IMG/VR virus record: IMGVR_UViG_3300028610_001024
Location: 1-64,000 of that record
Length of the DNA: 64,000 nucleotides
Reading direction: 5' to 3' (one strand)
Source: a virus
Below the pieces are notes generated by a model. It made no database searches. It was not told where the DNA came from and saw only the letters and a program-made list of their open reading frames with translations. Of the stretch, positions 10,163-35,079 are shown piece after piece. Positions within the stretch are counted from its first letter, which is position 1; every line of letters starts with the position of its first letter. A program made the position numbers and the translations under genes.

Positions 10163-10330
10163 ATTCAACAATCTGAATCCATTTGGTTGAATTTATCCAG
10201 AATTTTGAATCGAGATGAGGTTAGGTAAAGCTACAGGGACATAAGTATCATGGTTTATCTAACTTTATGCTACGAATTTGCTCAATCTAGGTGGTGGCAC
10301 CCTCGTAGACAACCTGGCATGAGCCTTGCT
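10163..10330 (+). promoter_or_regulatory. Sigma-54 promoter cassette 1 (three enhancer-like boxes plus -24/-12)
   Basis: TGGCATGAGCCTTGCT at 10315-10330 (GG-N10-GC); ATYCA-N6-TGAAT boxes at 10163, 10177, 10195. Confidence 0.85.
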
Positions 10331-10669
10331 ATATAGGTGAGTGTCCGGTAAGCAAATCGGGCGAAGTAAACAAAGGACACACACCATGACATGCTCACAC
10401 TCAACCTGTACTCTTCCAGCTTGGACCGATAGCGATAGCGGCCTTTGCATGACGCATATCGTTGAGGCAAGAATAGAACGGGAAGGTAGTACTCTGAGAT
10501 CTCAAAACAACAAACATACCTCAGAGATGAGCGCTCATAGACGGACTATCTCTAAGGTTGGCCGACGCGAATTGAACTAAACAAGTGTCCGGTTGGCAAG
10601 TTAGCTAGACGGGCGACACGATAAAGGAAACCTACAGACTCAACACTCTTTTGTTAAAGGATTAACATC

Positions 10670-11158
10670 ATGACCAACACACTAGCAGCACACTTGTACA
10701 ACCAGATCAGTCGACGCAACGCCAGCCACTCTAGCTGGACACCTGAGCACACACAAACGATCCGTGGACACGCTAGAGAAGCCCTCACGGCCGCTCTAGA
10801 CCTCCTCCCGCACGGCAGCGGGATTGATAACCCCTGGACTGTGGACATGTTCGATACATATGCCGGAGCAAATGGAGAACCCAACGTTGGAGCGCTGAAA
10901 ATCCGGTTCGGGTATCACCCCATGGACGAGAGTGGATATCTTAGTTGGCGTAGCTACACCATGACGGCTTGCCCGGGTTGGGGTGGTATTGAAGTCCACA
11001 TAGAGGACATCACAGACGATGTTAACATTGATGACCTTGACGATACGGTGGACTACCTCACAGAACTCTTCCAGCACGCACTATCTCAGGAAGTCACTTG
11101 GATCTACAATGACATCGATAAGCACACTGTAACCGCTACTGAACAAGGATGGAATTAA
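10670..11158 (+). CDS. Conserved phage hypothetical protein (LPHGSGID motif)
   Basis: LLPHGSGID..FGYHPMDESGY; AAGGA SD. Confidence 0.7.
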   Translation: MTNTLAAHLYNQISRRNASHSSWTPEHTQTIRGHAREALTAALDLLPHGSGIDNPWTVDMFDTYAGANGEPNVGALKIRFGYHPMDESGYLSWRSYTMTACPGWGGIEVHIEDITDDVNIDDLDDTVDYLTELFQHALSQEVTWIYNDIDKHTVTATEQGWN

Positions 11159-13006
11159 CGTCATGATTTACGATGAGACTTGCAACCGTTACCGTAACCC
11201 TCTCACCGGTCGTTTCGTATCGTTCAAATCTGCACAAACTGAACAACGCGTTCACAAGGACTTCTATCTAAATCTTTACAAGGAAATCGAACTCCTTGCT
11301 ATGGTCAATACGTACCGAGCGCTGTACCATGTTAGTCTCAGTGAAGCCTATCGGGCTGTTATGAATGGAAATCGAAGGACGAGGGGTTAAGTACAATGCC
11401 AATTAACACGGTACCAATCAAAGCGGTTACTCTTGAATCTCCGGACTCATGCTTCAGAGTCGTCTGTCAAGATGCACACGGTGATGTTGTAGTTACAGTC
11501 TACGATGATTCTATTGAAGTGACAATTCGAGTATGGGAAGACAAGGATAGCTCACAATGGGAAGAGAAAACGGTTTCAATACCACGAGAGGACCTAGGAA
11601 TGTCACAACACATAGGATACAAACCTTGCGACTGTCGCGACTGTATGGAGATAGCTGTTGGTCCCTACTGTCTTGAATGCGAGGAAGCGGGTTGTCCAGA
11701 CTTCCAAGGAGTAGAGGGTATGTCTCAAGAGTGTCAATGTAAGAGTGCTTACGATCAAGAGGAAATCGATAGTGGTATCGACCTCGCCCTCTACGACACC
11801 TTACAGCGTCAACGTGGTAATCTGATCTGGTACTGGACGGATGAAGGACGGGCCGTTTTTTCGACTGAGCGACCACATGGTAGAGCTGCCTTAAACGTGG
11901 AAAACATGGATGGAGAAAAGTTCTCCATTGAAACAGCCAAACTTGAGATCGTAGATTCGGAAGGGTAGAAATCATGATGAATGAAGAAGTCAAGATCCTC
12001 GAAGATGATGAGATCCCCGATGCATGTCATAATTATACAATCTGGATAAAGGGTTCAAAGACTTGGGAGGAGTCTGGGAGAGTGAATGCTACCTTCTACG
12101 CAAAAAACCATGTAAAAGCTACAAAGAAAGCTGCTGACTGGATGAAGGAAAACTTACCAGATGAACAATACTCTGTAAGAAGACGATATAACGATAACTT
12201 CAGACATGACTAGGTCCGGAAGGATAAGCTGATGCCACTCTGTTACAAAGATCAAACGTTTTGCGAAGCCAAATGTAGCAAGACCAGATGTCTACGGCAC
12301 CAATCGAATATCAATCAAGCTCAGGCTGATTTGTTAGGGTTAGGTGTAGCTACTGCGAACTTTTCCAAGGACTGTCCTGAGTACGTTCCGGTAGTACCAA
12401 CCGAATCTGAACCAATGTTTGCATCTGGTAGAATGACGTACAAAGAAATGTTTGATGAACTTGAGAGGGGAGAGTCATGACTCATAAAATGAAAACCAAA
12501 ACAAATCAATGGTGGAAACGTTGGTACAGTGGAGCCTATGACAAGACTGAAATAGTAGAACGGGAATGGCTACTTCGTCTTATCACATATCGCGACAAGG
12601 ATGTAAATGGAAAGGACTACTTCTCAGAGGATGTACAACAGTTACAAAAATCGAGGCTTGATCGACGTGGGCCTTTTACACGCTCAGCTGAAGATGCTCT
12701 ACGTGTAACATTTGAAGATCTTCGTATCATAAACCACCATCTAAGGGAAAAAATCAGGTCCCAGATAGTAGGAAGGGAAGAGTCATGAGAACCTATTCCG
12801 ATACTTCCCCTGATTCTGGTACCGTTGTAGAAATCAAAATCAACGGTAGACTTTTTTATGCCACAAAGCGCACGGATGGAAAATGGGACATGGATGACAT
12901 AAAAGAAAGCTGTAACTACCACACTGGTTCTCTAGCAGATGGAATTCTAGCAGCTGCATTTGAGACTACCTGTTACGATGAACTTGATACATAAAGGATC
13001 TATCTA

Positions 13007-14233
13007 ATGACAGCCTTCACAATCTCCACCCATGCCATTCCCAGAATCGAAAAGCGTCTAACCGTCCTCTCTAAACGTGCTGTTAAGCTAAACCTTTCCC
13101 CTCTAACGTGGACACTTTCTAATCAGCGACAAGAGCAACGGTTTACTCAAGTTGAAGGCGAATCCTTTGCTTGTGGGTTCGATGAAAGTACCGCCCCACA
13201 ATGGCTCGACCTCGTTGACATAGAAATCACTGGTGAATCTCCTATCATGCCAGGCGGTTGGTGGTTCATCACTGCCATTGAAGCCGTTGACGATGGAGTT
13301 AATCTAATCTTATCAGTTCCAGGTGTCGATGATATCGACGTCGACGAGTATAAAGCTATCAGTATGACACGTTGTGATCATTGTCATGTAAAGCACAATC
13401 GTAAAGCGGTCTATGTGGTGCGTGATTCTAACGGCGATGAGTCCGTAGTGGGTAAGTCCTGCCTGAAAGACTTCACCGGGCATATGTCACCTGAAAGCAT
13501 TGTCATGTGGGCGACAATGTGGCGTGAGATTGAAGACATGGCTGAGGATAAAGAATACAATGGTAGCCATGGTCCTGATCTAATCGATACCTTTAAGTAC
13601 GTGACTCATGTTGCGGCGTGCGTACGGGTTGACGGATGGTTAAGTAAATCACAGGCTGAAGAAATGAATTGTAACAGTACAGCAAGCGACGCTATCGTGA
13701 CTGGGTTCATGAGTTGCAAAACTCAAGACATGAAAGATTTTAGTGAAGCTCGACAACCCATAGCTGAGGATATCAATACCGCACGGGAAGCTATCGCATA
13801 CGCTCAGGCAATGGATACCTTAAACGGTGGGGGAGATTTTCTCCATAACGTACAAGTGCTTTCTAATACTAAATGTTTCGATATCAAACGCACTGGACTA
13901 GTGGCGTGTATCACCCTTGTCTACAACAAAGAAATCAACCGAAGGAAAAAGATTGAATCAAGTACCAGCGAGTATCTTGGAAAGGTAAAGGATAAAATTA
14001 CAGTTCAAGCAACGTTTGAGGGAATGGCACTCTTTGATGGCTACTATGGGGCGGTCTACATCTGCCAATTTGATTCTAATGGTAGTAAAATTGTATGGTG
14101 GGCTTCTAAGTCGCCTGAGCTTACTCCAGGAGTTGAGGTTGAGTTAACAGGTAGAGTGAAGAAACATGATGAGTTTAAAAATGAGAAGCAAACGACGGTT
14201 ACACACTGTAAAGTAAAGGAGCTGAATCAATGA
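13007..14233 (+). CDS. Conserved phage protein with Zn-binding motif and C-terminal OB-fold
   Basis: CDHC..R..VGKSCLKDF; C-terminal YLGKVKDKI..GYYG..LTGRVKKHDEFKNEKQT. Confidence 0.7.
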   Translation: MTAFTISTHAIPRIEKRLTVLSKRAVKLNLSPLTWTLSNQRQEQRFTQVEGESFACGFDESTAPQWLDLVDIEITGESPIMPGGWWFITAIEAVDDGVNLILSVPGVDDIDVDEYKAISMTRCDHCHVKHNRKAVYVVRDSNGDESVVGKSCLKDFTGHMSPESIVMWATMWREIEDMAEDKEYNGSHGPDLIDTFKYVTHVAACVRVDGWLSKSQAEEMNCNSTASDAIVTGFMSCKTQDMKDFSEARQPIAEDINTAREAIAYAQAMDTLNGGGDFLHNVQVLSNTKCFDIKRTGLVACITLVYNKEINRRKKIESSTSEYLGKVKDKITVQATFEGMALFDGYYGAVYICQFDSNGSKIVWWASKSPELTPGVEVELTGRVKKHDEFKNEKQTTVTHCKVKELNQ

Positions 14234-15197
14234 GCCTTCAAGATTTGTTTCAAGATTTGGGTGAGACTTTTTTAACATGGTGTGATGACTGTGGAAATGA
14301 TCGTGATGACGTTGGACGGATGAGAGAATGTCCACATTGTGGAGACAGTATGTGTCAAGAGTGCTATAAGAAACATATTAAATGGTGCCTAGAAGAAGAG
14401 GAAAAATGGCGCCTAGAAGAAAAGGACTAGATATGAACACCCAAAAACGTCGCCGCTTAATTCATACCCTACTCTCACAAGTCGATGGTCTATCCCACCG
14501 AGCCGCTTTCAATCATGTCAGACGTGTTAATTATTTCTCAATAGCTCATGATCTTGATGCTGTAGGGGAAGTAGTACAGAGGAAACCTTTCAAAATGTGG
14601 CAGTTGAGAACTACTCCGAAATGTCAATCGAAGGATCATCGTGCTACTAGTCCAAGAGTACACCTGAAAATGGAAACGAGAAGGAGCTAACAATGAAGAA
14701 GTCACTTTCAAAAAGGGTAATCGATTTCCTCAAAATTCGCTGGATTGCTATCACTGACAGTATCTGGACAGATGATGCAGAGCTAGGATTGAAAATCGGT
14801 CCCATTGTCCTAGCCTACTATAAATGGGCGGATCCTACTGTTCTATGGAGACCTCAGTACAGAGAAATGGAAAAGAGAGAGTTCGGTGAGGCAATTCATA
14901 CTCAATTAGTATATAAAAGGAAAAAATCAAAGTGAATTATGATTACCTTTTAATGGCAACGCCTTACCAAGCCCTTACCCGTCGTCTACCTCAAGTGCTC
15001 ACTATAGGTACCATCATTCCAGTAATTGAACAGTTAGAGAACGCCTTACCTACCACTATAGGCGCATGGGTGGAGGTTACCACTAACGGCCCCGTAACCG
15101 GTCGAGATACGAAAGGACCACAGGATAAGCCTACAGCATTGTACTTCTCTGGACGTGAAGCTAGGGAAGGGAAATTGGACAATGAACTTTGGAGTGA

Positions 15198-15402
15198 AAG
15201 CAAATGATCAATAAAGTGAAACATAGTCTCTCTTCCGATGAGTGGCTTCATGTACGTGAAGCGGGAAGAGAAGCATATCAAGAAAGTAAGCGTACCCAAG
15301 ATTCAGAGGAAGTAGCTGTACATGCGGCGGACCTAGCTAGGGAGGAATGCCTTGCGTATATTCAATTAACGGGTGAAGCAAATGATCAATAAAGTGAAAC
15401 AT
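15198..15402 (+). repeat. 27-bp perfect direct repeat covering the starts of two adjacent genes
   Basis: AAGCAAATGATCAATAAAGTGAAACAT at 15198-15224 and 15376-15402. Confidence 0.9.
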
Positions 15403-16302
15403 GGCTTAGACCCACATAGCCAAACCATTACAGAAAAGACTGACTGGCCACCTGGGGTATTCCTTACTGAGGAGTCCGCTTTACAGTGTATAGGAGAACA
15501 ATTTCGAGATACAAGGGATAGACTTTCAGTTAATCCCGTAACCTTTACGGTTAATGCCTGGACTATAAAGTTATGGGTAGTGACTGATGGTATATGGAGT
15601 AAGTTATGATGGAACTTAGAATGTTAAAGCTGATTCTCTTAGAGCAAGCTGTACGGCTTAGCAATAATATTCTAACTGAAGCACTCGGAAATTTTTCATC
15701 TGCACTATCGAAACGTGAGATGAAACTAGCCACATGTGCAAGTGAGTCTCTGTCTAATCTAGCACGTAACCTGCTAGCCTATAGGAATCCATGAAATGAA
15801 ACCCATGAAAGGCTGTTCAAGCTGTAGCCCCTCAATCATCAATGGTCACTTTTGCCATGAGCAAGGCTGTCCTGATAGTTGGATGGATGAGAATGGGGTA
15901 GATTATCCTATTGAGTGTAAGGAATGTGGAAGGGAATTCTATCCTCATTTGAAATATGTCAAGTTTTGTAGCTCACTGTGTGAGAATATCTATCAAGGAT
16001 ATGAAGATGAGCTAACCTTTACACTAGAGTTAAATGATGAATACTGAAACCTACTTTCTGATATGTGATCCAAAGTCTGGTCTAGTGATACGTCGAGCCC
16101 GCCAACCCGCCAACATTACTGAGTCACACTTAGTATCTCTTCATGTAGACAAAAGGTTATGGAAATCTTACCGGGCGGGTGAACCCGTAAACTGGACGGA
16201 GCTACCGCTAGTTGCTCAGGACTTATGGAATCGACGTAGACGCTAGCTGCTATCGGCGGCGGACGAGCCGAGTACCAGACCTGGTCAGCCAAAACTATCA
16301 CT

Positions 16303-16461
16303 ATCCAGAATTCTGAATCCAAAATCTTGAATACATCCAACTTCTTGAATGTAGGTAAATACATATCAGCATCAGATCTATGGGGTAGAGTACATATATG
16401 CCCCATATTTACTCAATCCATGCTGTAGTACCCTCATAGATTGTCTGGCATGGGCCTTGCA
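16303..16461 (+). promoter_or_regulatory. Sigma-54 promoter cassette 2
   Basis: TGGCATGGGCCTTGCA at 16446-16461; ATCCA-N6-TGAAT boxes at 16303, 16317, 16335. Confidence 0.85.
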
Positions 16462-16514
16462 GTGTAGTAGGATGTCTGGCAAGTAAGCTAGACAGAAGAC
16501 AAGAGAACGAGACA

Positions 16515-19500
16515 ATGACAACATACGAAGCATACGTTACCGGTTACAACTTCCTCCCTGAATTGTCTGCTTTCCTGAAGAATCAAACAATCAAGGCGCG
16601 AATCCAAACTCTACTAGGCGAGGATGATATCCTCCCTATCAACAATGTTCAAGCCGCCGAGGAGGTCCTTGAATCCGGTAAGGGTCTAGAGGCTTATGAG
16701 TTGGCACGGAGTCTCTATAATGCTTAAAATGACCTACCTACAAGCCAAGACCTCCCTACTCGCCCAACTCGACGCTCATGAAGACTGGACAGTCACAACC
16801 CGCAATCGTAGCAACTTCAAGCCCCTCAAGGTTCCATATGTGACGCGTGACTACGATGACTGCCGGGTGTGGTTCAAATCTCAGAGTGTCTACCTGGGTT
16901 GGACTAACAACTTGAACGACGCCAGAAGCATACACATTGAAGACCTCAGAGTCGCGACACTGGCCGACGTGCTAGAGTCGGTCGACTATTACGTGAGTCT
17001 GGACTAGAGGAGAGTACACCATGAACCATGTACACCAGCAGCAAGCAAAAACAAGGACAAATGGTTAGAGTTAGTTAAACCTGAAGATATCATGCAACCC
17101 CCTGACCTCAACTTCGTCCCAACCCCCCCTTGCTTCATCCAGCCCATGGGTGGCTACCGCTCAACCCTAACCGGCCGTTTCCTCTCACGGGCCTATGTGG
17201 ATTACCAACTTACCCTGTGGTGGACGCAAGAGCTACAAAGAGCCTGGACGCGTCAAGTCCAGCTTGCAGCTCTCATGCTTCAAGCAACGACTCAGACGAC
17301 GGTAGCGACGCAACGTCGAGTGAGACAGGAGCGTCATATCGTGGTAGACTCAGATAGACCTATTCGACGTAAGCCCAGCAAGCGGGAACTAGAGGACAAG
17401 CGACGTCAGAAATTGTGGAATCAGTCAAGGAGTTACTCATGAATAGCACTCTAAGTAATGAAACCCCTCTATCAGTCGACTTCGATGATGAGATCAAAGA
17501 TGAACTAGCAGAGTGGATAGATGGACCGGATGAAGATGGAGTTAATAAGCCCTCACGTAGCATCCTGTGGATCGACTACCAACCCAGTGAAGATCTTGAA
17601 GCACGACATGAGTACAACGAAGCGACTAGGGGATATTAAAAATGAGTTATGAAAATAATTCACACATTCCGGATTACTTTGAATCTTGTAAAACCATAAC
17701 ACAAGTAAATACCTTCATCTATGGTGTCTGTAAGCAAGTAAAGTTCAAACCTGGCTGGACTGATGATAAGCAAGACGCTGTTCACATTGGCTATAGTTCT
17801 GATACTGAAACCTTTACCGTGTCCGTTTGGAATGGTGGTGACTCCACCAAAATCAGAGAAGCGATTCGGGATTTCTACAACCTACACGAGGAGAGAGTGT
17901 CATAAGTGGATTCACCCCCCTGTTTGCAGCTGTGGTGAGGACCATACATATACTGGAGGAAACCCATGCAAGACACAACCTTGACACGTCGAGCTATCCA
18001 CCCCAACGACACCCATAACGGTGAAAGCTCAGGAGCCTCACACCTAACCCCCAGCAAGGATCCGTTCAAGCTAGGCCTTCCAACCTTACCTGAACTGCAA
18101 ATGGAAGCCCGAATCCTTGACCATATGGAATTCCTAGCTAGTATAGGAGTTGAGAAAATCGACCGTCGTAAGCTAGCCGAAATGGCGATTGAGAAAGCTG
18201 ACGCGTTCGTGGCTATATTCAAACCTCGTAAGGAGTAATGACATGTCGATACATCGTAGTAGGATGAAACAGTGGGCTCAATCCATTAACCCTGATGTAA
18301 CAGAAAGGGATATTGATTGGTTGGTGGAATGTCTACCTGAATCAAGTTCCTTTTCTAATACACTTGACAGGGAAATACAACAAGCAAACCAGGTTGCTAT
18401 CGATCAGGGTACATTCAAAATGTTTCGACTGAACTCTAATGGAACTAAAACAGACATAGCCGAGGAGTAACCAACGAAAATCACTCTGATAGCTCTAGTC
18501 CTCCATGCATGGGGCTGGCCTGGACTTGGTATCTATGCCATTGTCGTCCTAATAGTTCACTTTCTCGAATGTAAATACCTTTAAAGGAGTTCCTATCATG
18601 GCGTTTCAATCTCTTCCTCGGACTCGTAGGTCAGTACAGTATCTCCTCACTAAAGTTCAGATCTCCAATTGCAAATCAACTCCTCACGTGTTTAGGTTCA
18701 CAAGTAAAGTTCTTCTAGACCATAGTAAACATTTATTTCCTGGAGCTGAGATTACAATAGATATTGATATCGATAGGTCGCAGGTAGCTTTCCGTAAGGC
18801 GAAAAATAGTGAACCCTCTTGGAGAATCTCTAAACCAAAGAAAAGTAATAGTACATTTAGCTCTAAAAATCTCTATGAGTTGATAGGACTTGGTACATGG
18901 GAAATTATTAAAATTCGAGTTGGTAATAAATACTATCCGGGATTCTATTACGGGCGGATTAAAGGGAAATGAACTTATCTAATGATCCAAGGGCCGTATA
19001 TAACCGACTTCGATTAGAAGTTCCTCAGCCAATAAGAGAAGACGCTCTACGAAGGAGTCGTATACAGACCGATCCAACTGAAGAGAATATCAACTCTGTT
19101 TCTGAGATGTACGAGATTGTCTTACTTAAAAAACCAGGTAATCTATTGCATCAGCGTCTTGAGCAAGCTTTTCTAAACCTAAAGAGGTAAATTCATGAAC
19201 CAAGTCCACCTATCTACTCTCCCGCCGGGTATCGACTTCATCTATCATCATCCTAACGGTAATGATATTGAGTGTCGTTCAGTTGGTAAGGGTAGCTATG
19301 AGTATTTTGACAATGGACTAGGCCAAATGGAAACGCTGTATAGTCCCACCATGCTTTGTGATATAACCAATTCCGATCTAACACTAATGCAAAGTGAACA
19401 AAGGCTTAGTAAACATTTGCGACATAGGTTGCATGTTGAGACTGGGGAGTAAGTCATGGAAAATGTAAAAGATTCTAAAGATAAAGTAATTCGAGTGATA

Positions 19501-20106
19501 CAGGATGGCTACCATCAACCTACGTGGAGAAACCTACAAGGATTATTGTGGTGAGAGTGATCTAGAGGTAACAGACTGTGATTGTGAGAAGTGCTTCAAA
19601 TTAAGATCACAAGCTTATGCAAAGGATAATCAATGAAAACCACTAAAACCTTCAACCCTTCAATTGAGCAAACCATTCCCAACTTTTTCCCTGACATTAA
19701 ACAACGCAAGCTTGCCTATACCATACTCAAGGTTCTCAACATCATCCCCAATCGTAAACTAATATTTGAAAAGGAACCCAACTGTAGAGGTAAATGTCCT
19801 GTCAGATTATACCTTATCAAAGATCTCAAAAAGGTACAATCACACCTTACCCAAAGCCAAACCATTACTCAAATCCCAAAAGGCTACACCGATGTTCATA
19901 CACTAGAACGAAAGTACGACCTACCTAATAGAACTATCTACCTGATATTCAAAACGGTTGGACTTGAATCAAATCAAATGTATAAACCTGAAGGACTAGG
20001 TACAGGGAGGAAACTGTTTAAGGTTAAGGATACAGAGTATGTAATGAAGTGGATTGTGAAGTCACGGGAACGATTCAGTGATCGAATATCCAACAGAGAG
20101 AGCTAG
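16515..20106 (+). other. Early operon 2: small hypothetical ORFs
   Basis: Coupled ORFs downstream of cassette 2. Confidence 0.7.
19633..20106 (+). CDS. Putative DNA-binding protein (tandem HTH-like), paralogue of 22189-22647
   Basis: Shared motifs FP..Q..AYT, P.G..D...ER.Y, VGLE...Y, K..EYV. Confidence 0.6.
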   Translation: MKTTKTFNPSIEQTIPNFFPDIKQRKLAYTILKVLNIIPNRKLIFEKEPNCRGKCPVRLYLIKDLKKVQSHLTQSQTITQIPKGYTDVHTLERKYDLPNRTIYLIFKTVGLESNQMYKPEGLGTGRKLFKVKDTEYVMKWIVKSRERFSDRISNRES

Positions 20107-20113
20107 TTGAATT

Positions 20114-20129
20114 TGGCACGATTCTTGCA
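20114..20129 (+). promoter_or_regulatory. Consensus sigma-54 site
   Basis: TGGCACGATTCTTGCA matches TGGCACG-N4-TTGCW. Confidence 0.75.
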
Positions 20130-20172
20130 GGCTACCCTCTAACCTTACCCAACTCAACTCTACCAACCCTCG

Positions 20173-20330
20173 ATCCAAATTCCTGGATTCAAAATTCTGC
20201 ATACTCCAAGGAATTGAAGTTAGGTAAGTCTATAGGATCATAGAGAGTATGTAGCCCAAAGCATATATGTCGTGGATTTGCTCAATCCATGCTACTCCCC
20301 ACTGAGGATTGAGTTGGCATGGACCTTGCT
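20173..20330 (+). promoter_or_regulatory. Sigma-54 promoter cassette 3
   Basis: TGGCATGGACCTTGCT at 20315-20330; degenerate boxes at 20173, 20187, 20204; CTCAATCC/GGATTGAG inverted repeat. Confidence 0.85.
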
Positions 20331-20381
20331 ATATAGAGGAGTGTACGGGACACGAACTAACCAAATAAGAGGACTAAGACA

Positions 20382-21925
20382 ATGACCAAGGTCAAGCAAG
20401 CCAAACGCGCCGCCCTCCAAACTAAAGTCCTCAAGGCCTTCCGTAAGATCACAATCATTGAGCTTCTCGACGGTCCCGGGAAAACGGTCACATGTATGGA
20501 CCTAGTCACCTTGGATATCTGCCAGACACACGAACAGGCCATAGAGTTAATGGACGAGATGTGGGAAGCCCAGCAAGTCTACACAGTGAACGGGTATGGA
20601 ACGAGCGCACAAGATCACGACTTCGCAAGCTGCTAGACTCTAACTGACACCCCAAACAAGGACACACGCCATGCGCTACATCAAACCTCAATCGACCGCT
20701 AAGACTCTCCGCCGTTCCAAGGCAATGCTGATCAACTTAGGTCAGACAGTGACCTCTGCTACGATCCGGAGCAACGGTGAGAAAGCTGAGCCTTACCCTC
20801 TCAAGGCTCTCAAAGGTCGTCTCATGCGAGAAATCCACTCCCCCAACTCTAGTCGATCGGACTACTACCAGGAAGCCGACGGATCCGTTACGATGTTGGC
20901 TCATGGTAACTGTACAATCAAGCTGAGCTTCTGAGGACGATACGATGTCAACCTCAACCTACGATTCACCCTTCGCGGACTACATCGTCAAATTCTCCAA
21001 GGGTCTTACACTCCGAGCACGGCTCGACAAGGACTACAAGGTCGGAGATGAAACAGAGACCCAATTCGGTACCGTTACCATCGTACGCGTACTTGAGGAC
21101 TAGCACCATGCAAGACACTAGCACCTACGACGCAGCTCTAGCACTCTTCCTGTCCTACGCTCTCAGCATTCAACCTGAGCAACACGCCAGCTTTCCAGTC
21201 CCTGTTTTCACCATTGAACCCGGCCGTAAGTACGACCGTATCATCCTAGCTAACCCTCACAAGTCCGCTTTCTGTTTCGTCCGTAAGTCCGACGGCGCTG
21301 TGCTCAAGACTGCCAATTACAAAGCACCAGCCAAGCACCCTCGTGGCACGATCTACCTTGACGACCCTAGCAACGTTGACGCCTACGGGATCGGCCCGTA
21401 TGGTGCAAACTACCTGAGATAGGACTCTCCCCCATGTCTACCACTGGCACACTTTGCCCCCTCTGTCAACATCCCACAGCCACCTACGACCCTTCAGCCC
21501 GTACCCTCATCTGTACCGACTGCGAACATGTCGAGCCCGTCACTTTAGTCCTGGCCATGACCTTGTGGGATGTAGCTATTGATATAAATAACCGGGAATT
21601 TGCCAAGTGTGTCACCGTTGAAAAAGAGCAAGGTTGTGATGAGGATACATGGCTAGCAGCATTAGGCAATGATAAAAAAACTAACGCTATCGAAGCTCAA
21701 CAGAGGGCTATCCGAGCTGAGTACATGACCACGGATGGCATCTTTGACGTCCAACAAGTCGTTCTAATCACTACAATCAAGCACTACGTCCAAGACCTAG
21801 CAGACAGTCCAGACGTCACGCCTGAGAGCCGCCAGCAAGTCTTAGAGCTACTCGAAACCACCGCCCTTAAACCTCAAGTGCTAGTCACTTGGGCGCGTAA
21901 GGTCTTAGCCAAAGCATACAAGTAA
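20382..21925 (+). other. Early operon 3: small ORFs, including an untracked 52-aa ORF at 20946-21104
   Basis: GAGGA/AGGAC SD sites before each start. Confidence 0.7.
21108..21422 (+). CDS. Conserved phage hypothetical protein (GRKYDRI..KAPAKHPRG)
   Basis: Motif familiar from phage early proteins; GAGGA SD before ATG 21108. Confidence 0.7.
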   Translation: MQDTSTYDAALALFLSYALSIQPEQHASFPVPVFTIEPGRKYDRIILANPHKSAFCFVRKSDGAVLKTANYKAPAKHPRGTIYLDDPSNVDAYGIGPYGANYLR

Positions 21926-22188
21926 TTCATGACAATTCATAACTGACCACCCCCCTGTAATGACCCAAAACGCTATAAACTGACCTTAGTTAAAGCACTT
22001 GACTTACACCACCTTACCGCTTACCCTTACGGAGTTAGTGGAGCTTTTCAGATTTTTTGTGGCAATCCAGGCTCGGAAATGAACTGGGATCTAAACCATC
22101 TTACAGACTACATTGTCTCGTCTACCGCTTCTGGCCCCTCTTTCATTCTCATTCCAGTGAGTGTACCATGTACCTCCAAAGGACCAAA

Positions 22189-22647
22189 ATGCTAGTTACA
22201 AACTACGACAGCACCAAACTTGAAACCGTTCAAGCCTACTTTCCGAAGTCTCAACAGCCAAAGGCCTACACCTACATCCGTGACCATGAAATTGAGCACG
22301 AAGCTACCTATAGGAAGGCTTCCAAGACTCGCGGACGGGGTTCTAAGCTCTACCCTGTAGATACCCTCCAGGAGATCAAAACGACGCTCAACAAGGCCTC
22401 CCAGGAGGTTCTAACGGCTCTCCCAGACGGGTGTATGGACCTTGCTGGAATCTCGGAGCGATATGGTATAGAATCGCACCGTATCTCGGCAGGCTTCGCC
22501 CTTGTGGGGCTTGAACCGAGGACGACATACCGACGTGGTAAAGCTGGTCGTCCTGTAAATGCCTACAACTTAAAGGCTGTTGAGTACGTCATAAGTGGCT
22601 TACATGAGCTTCGACAGGGACTTGATAATTTTCATGAGGAGTGTTAG
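22189..22647 (+). CDS. Putative DNA-binding protein, paralogue of 19633-20106
   Basis: AAGGA SD before ATG 22189; aligned motifs with the paralogue. Confidence 0.6.
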   Translation: MLVTNYDSTKLETVQAYFPKSQQPKAYTYIRDHEIEHEATYRKASKTRGRGSKLYPVDTLQEIKTTLNKASQEVLTALPDGCMDLAGISERYGIESHRISAGFALVGLEPRTTYRRGKAGRPVNAYNLKAVEYVISGLHELRQGLDNFHEEC

Positions 22648-23396
22648 AGCATGGATCCACTAGAAAGACTTCAAATCCAAACAGAAATCACCATTCTCTT
22701 CATCGATGAGGGGCTTAATAGACAGATCACTCGGAAGATGAAGGCCCGACCGTGTGTAGGGGATGCCGTTGAATGGTTTTACATGCCGTCCCCAATTATT
22801 AAACAGGTTCTAATACCATCAGGGGAGAAGGAGAGCCAATTCACAAAGTACGACTTTGTTTGTATACTCTAACTCTCTTACAAGGAATGGATCATGGACC
22901 CAACCAAAACCCTAGCTGAGTTTCTACATACCTGTAAAGGTACGTTCAACTTATCTATCACCTACCCGACATACTGGAGACCATAATGTCCAACCTTCTA
23001 CCCACACTCGGAGTCTTCCCTTTAACCCCCACCCATGAGATACTTGACGGTGAACCTGTAGACGCAACCCAATTTGGCTGTAATCCCAGTGGGTCTTTAC
23101 ATGATTACACTGAGCATTCGACTGAGGTCTTAGCAGAGGAGGCACTATCTCAATATCGAATATATCAGGCAATTAACACTCTCATAGAGGCAAAACTGGG
23201 GTGATCACCCCAGAAGACCTCACCACTTACACCAACGATGAACTCACTCAACTTCAGCAACTCCTCAACCTTGAAACTGTCAAGCCCTGGCGTACAGTTA
23301 AGAGTCTACAAGCTGGACTAGAGAATGTACTACCGTACAAGGGTAAAAGTGAGCTTGATAATCTTGAACCGTCCGACCTATTAAAAGATGAGAAAT

Positions 23397-23762
23397 AAGT
23401 GTAGTCGATGATTGTCCGGTGCTTCGCCCTCTGAGAAAGTCGATGAGTGTGGTACAACAGGGATACATAGTGCAATCAACGGTCGATGGAGTAACCCACT
23501 TGTCTCGTAGGTGTTACTGGTTCCCCTCTAAATTGGAGGGTACATGGGTTCACGATAGCGTCTCACCTCGACAGACTGTATAACCTGGGAAATAAAGCCA
23601 ACCGACTTCTGCCGCGCTACGTGGGACCCAGAGAACGGCAACTGCAAGGCTGGACCGTGGCACCCTTGGCCACCGTTGATTCTGGAGACCAAAAAAGTAG
23701 CAGAAAATGAGTCGTCCTCAATAAAGGACATTATCGTCCCCTTACGGTGACACTTCTACACT
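23397..23762 (+). ncRNA. Large structured ncRNA (~360 nt) with RNase P RNA-like landmarks
   Basis: No credible + strand ORF; long-range helices 23474-83/23672-81, 23545-60/23615-30, 23397-407/23745-55; motifs GAGAAAGTC, AGTGCAA, TGCAAGGC, AGAAAATG, ACA..CTTA in RNase P order. Confidence 0.65.
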
Positions 23763-23856: not shown

Positions 23857-23872
23857 TGGCACAGCGTTTGCA
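23857..23872 (+). promoter_or_regulatory. Sigma-54 promoter upstream of the Zn-finger ORF and NYN gene
   Basis: TGGCACAGCGTTTGCA (GG-N10-GC) in intergenic DNA. Confidence 0.75.
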
Positions 23873-24150: not shown

Positions 24151-25062
24151 ATGTCCAACTCCACCTCTATTTTCGTCGATACCAGTAACGCCTACCACAA
24201 TGGTGCAAATAATCTTCGTTATGATGAGCTACTCCGTTTTGCTCAACGTGATGGACGTAAGGTACAGCGCTATACAGCTTACTGCACCTATGACTCAGAT
24301 AAAGATGACGGATCGTCTGAAGGTAATCTTTATGCTGAGGGCCTGGAGAAGTTCTGGGCTAGTCTAAGCGGATTTGGATATAAAGTCCATAAGGAGTACG
24401 TTAAGTGGCAAGGAAACGGTGGTAGTCGTAGACCAAAAGCTAATGTAGATATTCGTATGACAGTTGACATGCTTACGCAAACAGCTTCCGACACCATTTT
24501 ACTTGTAACTGGGGACGGTGATTTTATCCCTTTAGTTGAAGCTCTACAGCTAAGAGGTATTCGAGTAGAAGTGATGAGCTTTCTCAATTCCTCTTCTGCT
24601 CTACAGGAATGTGCTGATTATCACATTAACGGAGCACTCCTCCCCGGGGTGATTCCTATTCAACAACCTGTCAATGCTGAAGTTGCAGATGAAGACTCTC
24701 ATAAACCTGTCTACTTCAACCACGGCGAACCTGGCTCAACTCTAACCGGACAAATATACTACTTTAAACAGGAGAATAATTTTGGATTTATCCGTTATTT
24801 ACCCCTGGGTGAGTATAGTAATCTTCACGTTACAAGTACTGAGGATCCTATAACGTCCTTCAAAACTGTTCATGTTCACGGTAGCAAGCTTTTACCTAGA
24901 GATAGATACCCCTCAAATACAGTCTGGAAATTTGACCTAAAGAGTAGTGAGGTTAAAAAAGGGCAACTCACAGCTGTAAATCTTCGACCTGCGTTGACAC
25001 CTAAAAATACTAAACCCCCTCATAACTCTACTCGTCCACAACAATCACCCGATAAAGGGTAA
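24151..25062 (+). CDS. NYN (LabA/DUF88, PIN-like) ribonuclease with C-terminal cold-shock-like domain
   Basis: IFVDTSN, KANVDIRMTVD, LVTGDGDFIP..LQLRGIRVEV, SSALQECAD; then GQIYYFKQENNFGFIR..VHVHGS (RNP1/RNP2-like). Confidence 0.88.
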   Translation: MSNSTSIFVDTSNAYHNGANNLRYDELLRFAQRDGRKVQRYTAYCTYDSDKDDGSSEGNLYAEGLEKFWASLSGFGYKVHKEYVKWQGNGGSRRPKANVDIRMTVDMLTQTASDTILLVTGDGDFIPLVEALQLRGIRVEVMSFLNSSSALQECADYHINGALLPGVIPIQQPVNAEVADEDSHKPVYFNHGEPGSTLTGQIYYFKQENNFGFIRYLPLGEYSNLHVTSTEDPITSFKTVHVHGSKLLPRDRYPSNTVWKFDLKSSEVKKGQLTAVNLRPALTPKNTKPPHNSTRPQQSPDKG

Positions 25063-34644: not shown

Positions 34645-35079
34645 ATGATAACTAAACACGTTAGAGTTATGAAGAGGTGGCCCCTATTTTCTTTAAATAA
34701 AGAAAGGTGGCTACAAAGTGGATGTCCATCTATTGAGATGGAAGTCTACAGAACGGTACCAAAAGATGAGTTCCTAGATTGTCGTCATCGTAATGGACGT
34801 CCGGGCTTAATTAGGTTTATAGAACGAGAGCAAGTGACTGCCGAGAAGGTCTCAGAAAGTCACTCTGTATGTTCAATAGGTCGAAGTCCCGATGGTTCAT
34901 GGTGGGGGTGGAGCCATAGAGCCCGCTGTCGATTTAGAGTGGGGGATAGGTTATTTCGTGAAGACTTTCCAAGCCAGACAGATAATCTTCCGTTTATCGA
35001 GTGGGGTGATGTGGTGATACAGTCAGAAGACCAGGCAAGAGAAGCAGCATGTAACTTCGCCGCCTACGTGAGTTATTAA
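34645..35079 (+). CDS. Conserved phage hypothetical protein
   Basis: SIG...WWGWSHRA..FRVGD..AREAACNFAAYVS motif. Confidence 0.65.
   Translation: MITKHVRVMKRWPLFSLNKERWLQSGCPSIEMEVYRTVPKDEFLDCRHRNGRPGLIRFIEREQVTAEKVSESHSVCSIGRSPDGSWWGWSHRARCRFRVGDRLFREDFPSQTDNLPFIEWGDVVIQSEDQAREAACNFAAYVSY

Follow-up and report, generated by a model that had tools for sequence, protein, structure and literature searches.

Three putative sigma-54 promoter cassettes in a phage genome share an enhancer-like box array with regulatory DNA of Acidobacteriota

Results

Three repeated cassettes ahead of tandem gene blocks

The stretch of DNA analysed here (the window) comprises bases 1-64000 of the 77,728-bp IMG/VR virus record IMGVR_UViG_3300028610_001024, and the subject of this work is a putative regulatory cassette that it carries in three copies, each made up of an array of dyad boxes, a spacer and a -24/-12 element resembling those of sigma-54 promoters. 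The record carries terminal repeats of 144 bp and is rated 100% complete by CheckV. All of the phage genes lie on the + strand, the guanine-plus-cytosine (GC) content is 41%, and the gene set is of the siphovirus type (TerL, portal, major head protein and a 2065-aa tape measure), with a helicase, an amidase and a fusion of uracil-DNA glycosylase (UDG) and PolA also encoded; no tyrosine integrase was present in the phage genome.

The original prediction had described three cassettes, each with three ATYCA-N6-TGRAT dyads spaced 14 and 17-18 bp, and all of them were recovered, on the + strand. Cassette 1 has its array at 10163-10210 (dyads at 10163, 10177 and 10195), a spacer at 10222-10287 with the conserved TAGGTAA (10222) and ATTTGCTCAATC (10276-10287), and the -24/-12 element TGGCATGAGCCTTGCT at 10315-10330, with a predicted start near 10340-10341. 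Cassette 2 consists of an array at 16303-16350 (dyads at 16303, 16317 and 16335), a spacer at 16352-16418 with TAGGTAA (16352) and ATTTACTCAATC (16407-16418), and the element TGGCATGGGCCTTGCA at 16446-16461 (predicted start near 16471-16472). In cassette 3 the array spans 20173-20219, with dyads at 20173, 20187 (one mismatch) and 20204 (outer bases degenerate), and is followed by a spacer at 20221-20287 with TAGGTAA (20221) and ATTTGCTCAATC (20276-20287) and by the element TGGCATGGACCTTGCT at 20315-20330 (predicted start near 20340-20341). A sigma-54 promoter depends on rpoN and has its start some 11-12 nt past the GC of the -12 region, and this usual distance gave the predicted starts.

The overall identity of the three copies was 74%, and the invariant columns of their alignment fell mostly within the box half-sites, TAGGTAA, ATTTRCTCAATC and the -24/-12 element; the half-sites and the -24/-12 element thus remained unchanged although the spacers diverged. 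CTCAATC (10281, 16412 and 20281) precedes TGGCATG (10315, 16446 and 20315) by 34 bp in every copy, and the arrays of inverted-repeat sites end 96-105 bp before TGGCA (105, 96 and 96 bp in cassettes 1, 2 and 3), both as first reported. The 10-bp insertion that had been read as one helical turn is indeed present in copy 1, together with a 1-bp deletion; the helical argument carries little weight, given a net difference of 9 bp and a range of 62 to 95 bp for the corresponding gaps of a distant phage relative (see below). Exact box cores numbered 15 in the whole genome against 5.7 expected, with 8/15 inside the three cassettes and a chance density elsewhere.

Each cassette occupies an intergenic gap (252-275 bp) on the coding strand and faces its genes. 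Operon 1 (10386-16246, +) holds about 18 small open reading frames (ORFs), including one for a 408-aa phrog_2319 protein; operon 2 (16515-20106, +) holds about 12, and operon 3 (20382-23398, +) about 10, among them those for a DUF7717 protein at 21048 and a zinc-ribbon protein at 21434. The count of ~40 driven genes assumes that there are no internal terminators. A short 5' hairpin was found in the leaders of copies 1 and 2, at 10342-10363 (+; 8 bp, the first ORF starting at 10386) and at 16473-16494 (+; z = -3.8). The leader element (AGTGTCCGG..GGCAAGTTAGCTAGAC) recurs at window 10584-10618, just past the first small ORF of operon 1, with no usable -24/-12 element; this additional copy may serve in RNA processing or stability, or it may be what is left of a cassette that has decayed.

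Sigma-54 elements and search for a phage-encoded activator

YTGGCATG-N4-TTGCW was invariant in the three cassettes. Exact matches to TGGCAY-N5-TTGCW numbered five in the 77.7-kb genome, against 0.097 expected (1000 shuffles, maximum 3), all of them intergenic and on the + strand, with none on the minus strand. In these five sites the GG and GC are exactly 10 bp apart within YTGGCAYR-N4-TTGCW, and a start codon with a Shine-Dalgarno sequence follows after 55-72 nt. The two sites outside the cassettes are TGGCACGATTCTTGCA (20114-20129, +), which has no boxes of its own and precedes the cassette 3 array by 59 bp, and TGGCACAGCGTTTGCA (23857-23872, +), which also lacks boxes and stands ahead of an ORF for a Cys-rich peptide and an NYN-domain gene. 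The former directly follows the stop of the ORF at 19633-20106; it may act as a second promoter, with the cassette 3 array serving it from downstream, or may be inactive. The latter comes after a 530-bp non-coding gap and is followed by the Cys-rich ORF of 50 aa (23929) and the NYN-domain protein (24151-25062; Pfam E = 7e-26).

No activator had been noticed in the window, and the search of the complete genome likewise gave no match to Sigma54_activat (PF00158) or Sigma54_activ_2 (PF14532). Searches of the complete genome for sigma factors and RNA polymerases yielded no Sigma54_DBD, HTH_8, Sigma70_r2 or T7-type RNA polymerase match, with PF04552, PF02954, PF04542 and PF00940 all negative, and the PF08281 match was only a helix-turn-helix (HTH) of a protein with three such domains. 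Among the real phage genes, Walker A motifs were confined to the helicase and the polymerase ORF. As the phage encodes neither a recognizable sigma factor nor an activator, both must be supplied by the host if these are sigma-54 promoters.

The same architecture in bacterial genomes

One genome per prokaryotic species was scanned for two TYCA-N6-TGRA boxes located 85-115 bp from TGGCAY-N5-TTGC, a pattern for which a rough estimate gave about 5 matches by chance. At least 120 matches were obtained, and about 95 of the 120 listed titles were Acidobacteriota (Thermoanaerobaculia, Aminicenantes, Holophagae and others among the matches listed), a skew that is a strong indication and not a census. 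Just two gene families followed 92 of the 113 readable matches among those listed: large signal-peptide proteins with CarboxypepD_reg and an OMP or TonB-dependent-receptor barrel (66/113), and a GAF-PAS-HisKA sensor kinase of ~950 aa directly followed by a REC-Sigma54_activat-HTH_8 regulator of ~460 aa (26/113). The remaining listed matches (21/113) were mostly from other phyla and looked like chance. In 301 sampled Acidobacteriota genomes the pattern occurred 36 times, in 24 genomes, whereas a reversed-pattern control gave 0; five Aminicenantia-type genomes had 7-10 one-box matches each versus 0 in controls, and the same site recurred at several sigma-54 promoters within one Aminicenantia genome, as in a regulon.

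At the box positions left free by the scan pattern, the hosts and both phages (the present one and the distant relative) had A at -1, A at n1, T at n6 and T at +1, which results in the extended motif aTYCAa-N4-tTGRAt. The three-box array with 14+17/18 spacing and a sigma-54 promoter was found twice in Aminicenantia genome G007 and also in G008, and near-exact three-box arrays were present in L033, L108 and L110. Loci at which the dyads stand about 96 bp upstream of TGGCAY-N5-TTGC, ahead of genes of the two families, lie within L010-L129 (e.g. L031:1429-5603, L034:1115-5378 and L112:1139-4204). Taken at face value, these sequences outline a candidate sigma-54 regulon across the phylum Acidobacteriota, comprising the kinase-regulator pair and the CarboxypepD_reg/TonB-like outer-membrane proteins. 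The HTH_8 recognition helix of the regulator was conserved across classes; the three Aminicenantia genomes checked had a single orthologue each of the kinase, followed by the GAFTGA-bearing regulator, and genomes G006-G008, of the candidate host class, had one rpoN (Sigma54_DBD gene) each.

These matches bear on what binds the boxes. Three tandem palindromes resemble phage operator arrays, and the dyads might be operators at which a phage-encoded DNA-binding protein represses, times or co-activates transcription, with a bacterial enhancer-binding protein (bEBP) acting from solution or from elsewhere; the two sigma-54 sites without boxes would suit such an arrangement. The main candidate for this role would be the 179-aa phage protein with three HTH domains (HTH_28, Sigma70_r4-like and HTH_23; genome 65000-65539, L003:1000-1539), and the second a 260-aa winged-helix-like protein at 1561-2343 with a weak TrmB/regulator HTH. 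In the bacterial chromosomes, however, where no such phage protein is present, the same dyad with the same flanks, spacing and promoter distance stands before outer-membrane and kinase genes, and in the phage the boxes lie about 100 bp upstream of the promoter and not over it. We therefore consider that operators for a phage protein are an unlikely explanation of the boxes.

The occurrence before chromosomal genes in bacteria also argues against a role of the cassettes, as sets of iterated palindromes, in replication, partition or packaging. Three close palindromes at three places could in principle serve as iterons or centromere-like sites, but here each array is tied rigidly, at about 100 bp, to a -24/-12 element that faces the next gene, with a leader and then a Shine-Dalgarno sequence downstream, so that a role other than in promoters is very improbable.

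Distant phage relatives

Searches of the phage database and IMG/VR with DNA, the major capsid protein and the exact cassette pattern gave no close relatives; the only fairly close homologue on record was of TerL (48% identity), and the TerL homologues were few and on short contigs. The pattern scan, applied to viral contigs, revealed a distant relative, IMGVR_UViG_3300015263_000597 (G001), a complete genome of 77,687 bp and 52% GC. It shares with the present phage the genome size, 15 colinear core proteins (26-38% identity), the box motif and its spacing upstream of sigma-54 promoters, and the lack of an encoded bEBP. Its six sigma-54 cassettes, compared with three here, have two or three boxes each with the same 14+17/18 spacing and box-to-promoter gaps of 62-95 bp; it differs in having TGGCAC for TGGCAT, some cassettes on the other strand and a GC content of 52% instead of 41%. 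None of the small ORFs of the sigma-54-driven region is common to the two phages, and therefore the regulatory architecture was kept while the driven genes turned over. In one G001 region (L134, 24534-24768) a single three-box array lies between divergent sigma-54 promoters at 24534 (-) and 24753 (+), ~220 bp apart, an arrangement that would be expected of an orientation-independent enhancer. A very similar cassette, TGGCATGGTCCTTGCTATAGA with boxes, was found in a 4.5-kb metagenome contig (L172) that also encodes a homologue of a protein shared by the phages, and boxes with sigma-54 promoters were present in other viral contigs (L004/L137, L007, L008, L009 and L147).

Comparison with G001 is also informative about the core element. 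TGGCATG-N4-TTGC might only resemble a sigma-54 site and be used by a sigma-70-family holoenzyme, through the overlapping extended -10-like TGCTATATA, or by an unrecognized phage factor: TGnTATATA covers the -12 region in copies 1 and 3, and TTGCTAnrTAG, which extends past the sigma-54 consensus, is conserved in both phages. Copy 2, however, reads TGCAGTGTA, and the G001 copies have TAAGTA, TATGTA, TATAGA and TACATA, in each of which the final T that is critical to a -10 hexamer is missing; recognition of the core by sigma-70 was rejected because of these hexamers and because copy 2 does not fit. Moreover, there is no conserved -35 element, nine phage cassettes have the GG and GC unchanged and at their exact spacing, the phage encodes neither a protein with sigma-70 region 2 nor an RNA polymerase of its own, and in bacteria the architecture is found ahead of an operon with a gene for a sigma-54 activator. 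Transcription by a holoenzyme other than that of sigma-54 thus appears quite improbable.

Host clues and other features of the genome

The 408-aa phrog_2319 protein of operon 1 (13007-14233) belongs to a family widespread in large phages, and its best match in the phage database was from Tunturiibacter phage Tunturi_5, a phage of Acidobacteriota (E = 3e-37; annotated as RecT-like), which may be taken as a weak, independent pointer to an acidobacterial host. The matching host loci had a GC content of 40-42%, and the tetranucleotide similarity between phage and host loci was GC-driven and weakly favoured low-GC Acidobacteriota. No tRNAs or Rfam families were found in the phage, and the PolA search pointed to no host. 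The best phage-database match of TerL was from a Pseudanabaena cyanophage (33.5% over 35% of the query); it was given no weight because the match is weak and because cyanobacteria, to our knowledge, have no sigma-54.

Positions 10000-32000 of the window form a compositional island (GC 0.41-0.50, coding-strand GC skew near zero or negative) that coincides with the sigma-54-driven and neighbouring accessory genes; outside it the GC is 0.37-0.43 and the skew strongly positive. A homologue of the Thoeris inhibitor Tad6 is encoded at window 34645-35079 (Pfam PF25188, E = 4e-21), and the family A DNA polymerase at genome 67647-70346 (L003:3647-6346) has an N-terminal UDG-superfamily domain and a 3'-5' exonuclease domain. 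The repeat CTTGACATGAACAGGGTGGGGTATTAG occurs at genome 64081 (L003:81-107) and 75340 (L003:11340-11366), with a partial copy at window 42604, and can be read as TTGACA, 17 nt, and then TAGACT or TAGGGT. These repeats are candidate sigma-70-type promoters before the regulator/polymerase module and the replication module, and the replication genes may be driven by the copies at 64081 and 75340 instead of by the cassettes.

Discussion

The explanation that we favour, at a probability of about 0.72, is that the cassettes are enhancer-dependent sigma-54 promoters modelled on host regulatory DNA, from which host sigma-54 and a host bEBP would drive the three operons. Dependence on a host bEBP had been proposed originally, and it is now supported by the host genomes and by the distant phage relative. 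According to this model, host RNA polymerase with sigma-54 would bind the TGGCATG-N4-TTGC element as a closed complex, while a host bEBP of the NtrC family would bind the three aTYCAa-N4-tTGRAt dyads about 100 bp upstream and form an ATPase ring; the ring would loop to the polymerase and use ATP to open the promoter, and transcripts beginning near 10340, 16471 and 20340 would cover the three tandem blocks of ~40 small genes. A host signalling protein would then probably decide whether these phage genes fire, and they may be expressed early, as in the original prediction.

The original prediction of a sigma-54-using host agrees with the presence of the architecture in acidobacterial genomes, and the actual host is placed by inference: it is probably a low-GC member of Acidobacteriota, with the class Aminicenantia as our best guess because of the three-box array, the preference for TGGCAT, the GC content of the matching loci and the weak tetranucleotide similarity. 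The activator would most likely be the response regulator of the kinase-regulator pair with the CarboxypepD_reg/TonB-like outer-membrane regulon. This regulator is favoured because its operon is preceded by the boxes, at 26 acidobacterial loci among the matches listed, and autoregulation is typical of such systems.

Several observations weigh against these proposals. The sigma-54 sites at 20114 and 23857 stand without boxes, and the taxonomic skew of the bacterial matches comes from the titles listed. G007 encodes 11 bEBPs, among which the box binder would have to be sought. In the three Aminicenantia genomes checked, no boxes with a sigma-54 promoter were found ahead of the kinase-regulator operon, so that the assignment of the regulator as box binder rests on other acidobacterial classes. 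Finally, the best consensus matches to an integration host factor (IHF) site in the phage spacers had 2 mismatches and were no better than those in shuffled sequences, while the IHF consensus was modestly enriched in the host cassettes; such a bending site between enhancer and promoter is frequent and not obligatory.

A further, rather speculative step would connect the phage to a defined host function: the block of ~40 genes may be wired to the two-component regulator by which the host turns on its TonB-like receptors of the outer membrane, a proposal that we regard as doubtful at present. If one such receptor were the adsorption receptor, the activator would already be at work in any cell open to the phage, and the cassette would act both as a receptor-coupled go signal and as a sensor of nutrient state, its transcription immune to a shut-off of the primary sigma factor.

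Use of host sigma-54 by phages is known. Pseudomonas aeruginosa phage YuA has sigma-54-dependent promoters, and their rpoN dependence has been experimentally shown (PMC10914365, citing Ceyssens et al. 2008). The text consulted names no upstream activator array or cognate host regulon for YuA (PMC10914365), whereas the present cassettes carry a three-dyad enhancer-like array that matches a putative host regulon. YuA, like the present phage, is a tailed phage without a sigma-54 of its own; it uses the host sigma-54 holoenzyme for part of its transcription, as the present phage would. The YuA sites reportedly lie in the particle-formation and lysis region, whereas the genes driven here would be small accessory ORFs.

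Among bacterial enhancer-dependent sigma-54 promoters with tandem bEBP dyads are glnAp2, served by NtrC, and norVW, served by NorR and having three dyads. The cassettes share with this type the -24/-12 element, several inverted-repeat sites about 100 bp upstream, a layout that in G001, as judged by sequence, would suit orientation-independent action, and an NtrC-family REC-AAA+-HTH_8 regulator encoded within the candidate regulon; unlike the bacterial cases, the module resides in a virulent-type phage genome that has no activator. In the literature searched, we found no paper on phage cassettes copying the enhancer of a host bEBP and no description of the aTYCAa-N4-tTGRAt dyad or of the acidobacterial regulon. 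What would be new is therefore not the use of host sigma-54 by a phage, which is known, but phage-carried enhancer-dependent sigma-54 promoters that appear matched to a host regulon.

In the usual description, phages seize transcription by their own factors or through the housekeeping sigma factor of the host. The present phage, of lytic type, would leave a large block of genes to one host signalling pathway by copying both its enhancer and its sigma-54 promoter, which, if true, would be a clear case of regulatory mimicry and would make infection dependent on host physiology. It would also permit sequence-based host prediction by matching phage enhancers to host regulons, an approach useful for groups that are hardly cultured, such as Acidobacteriota and Aminicenantia, and as a by-product a candidate phylum-wide sigma-54 regulon has been defined.

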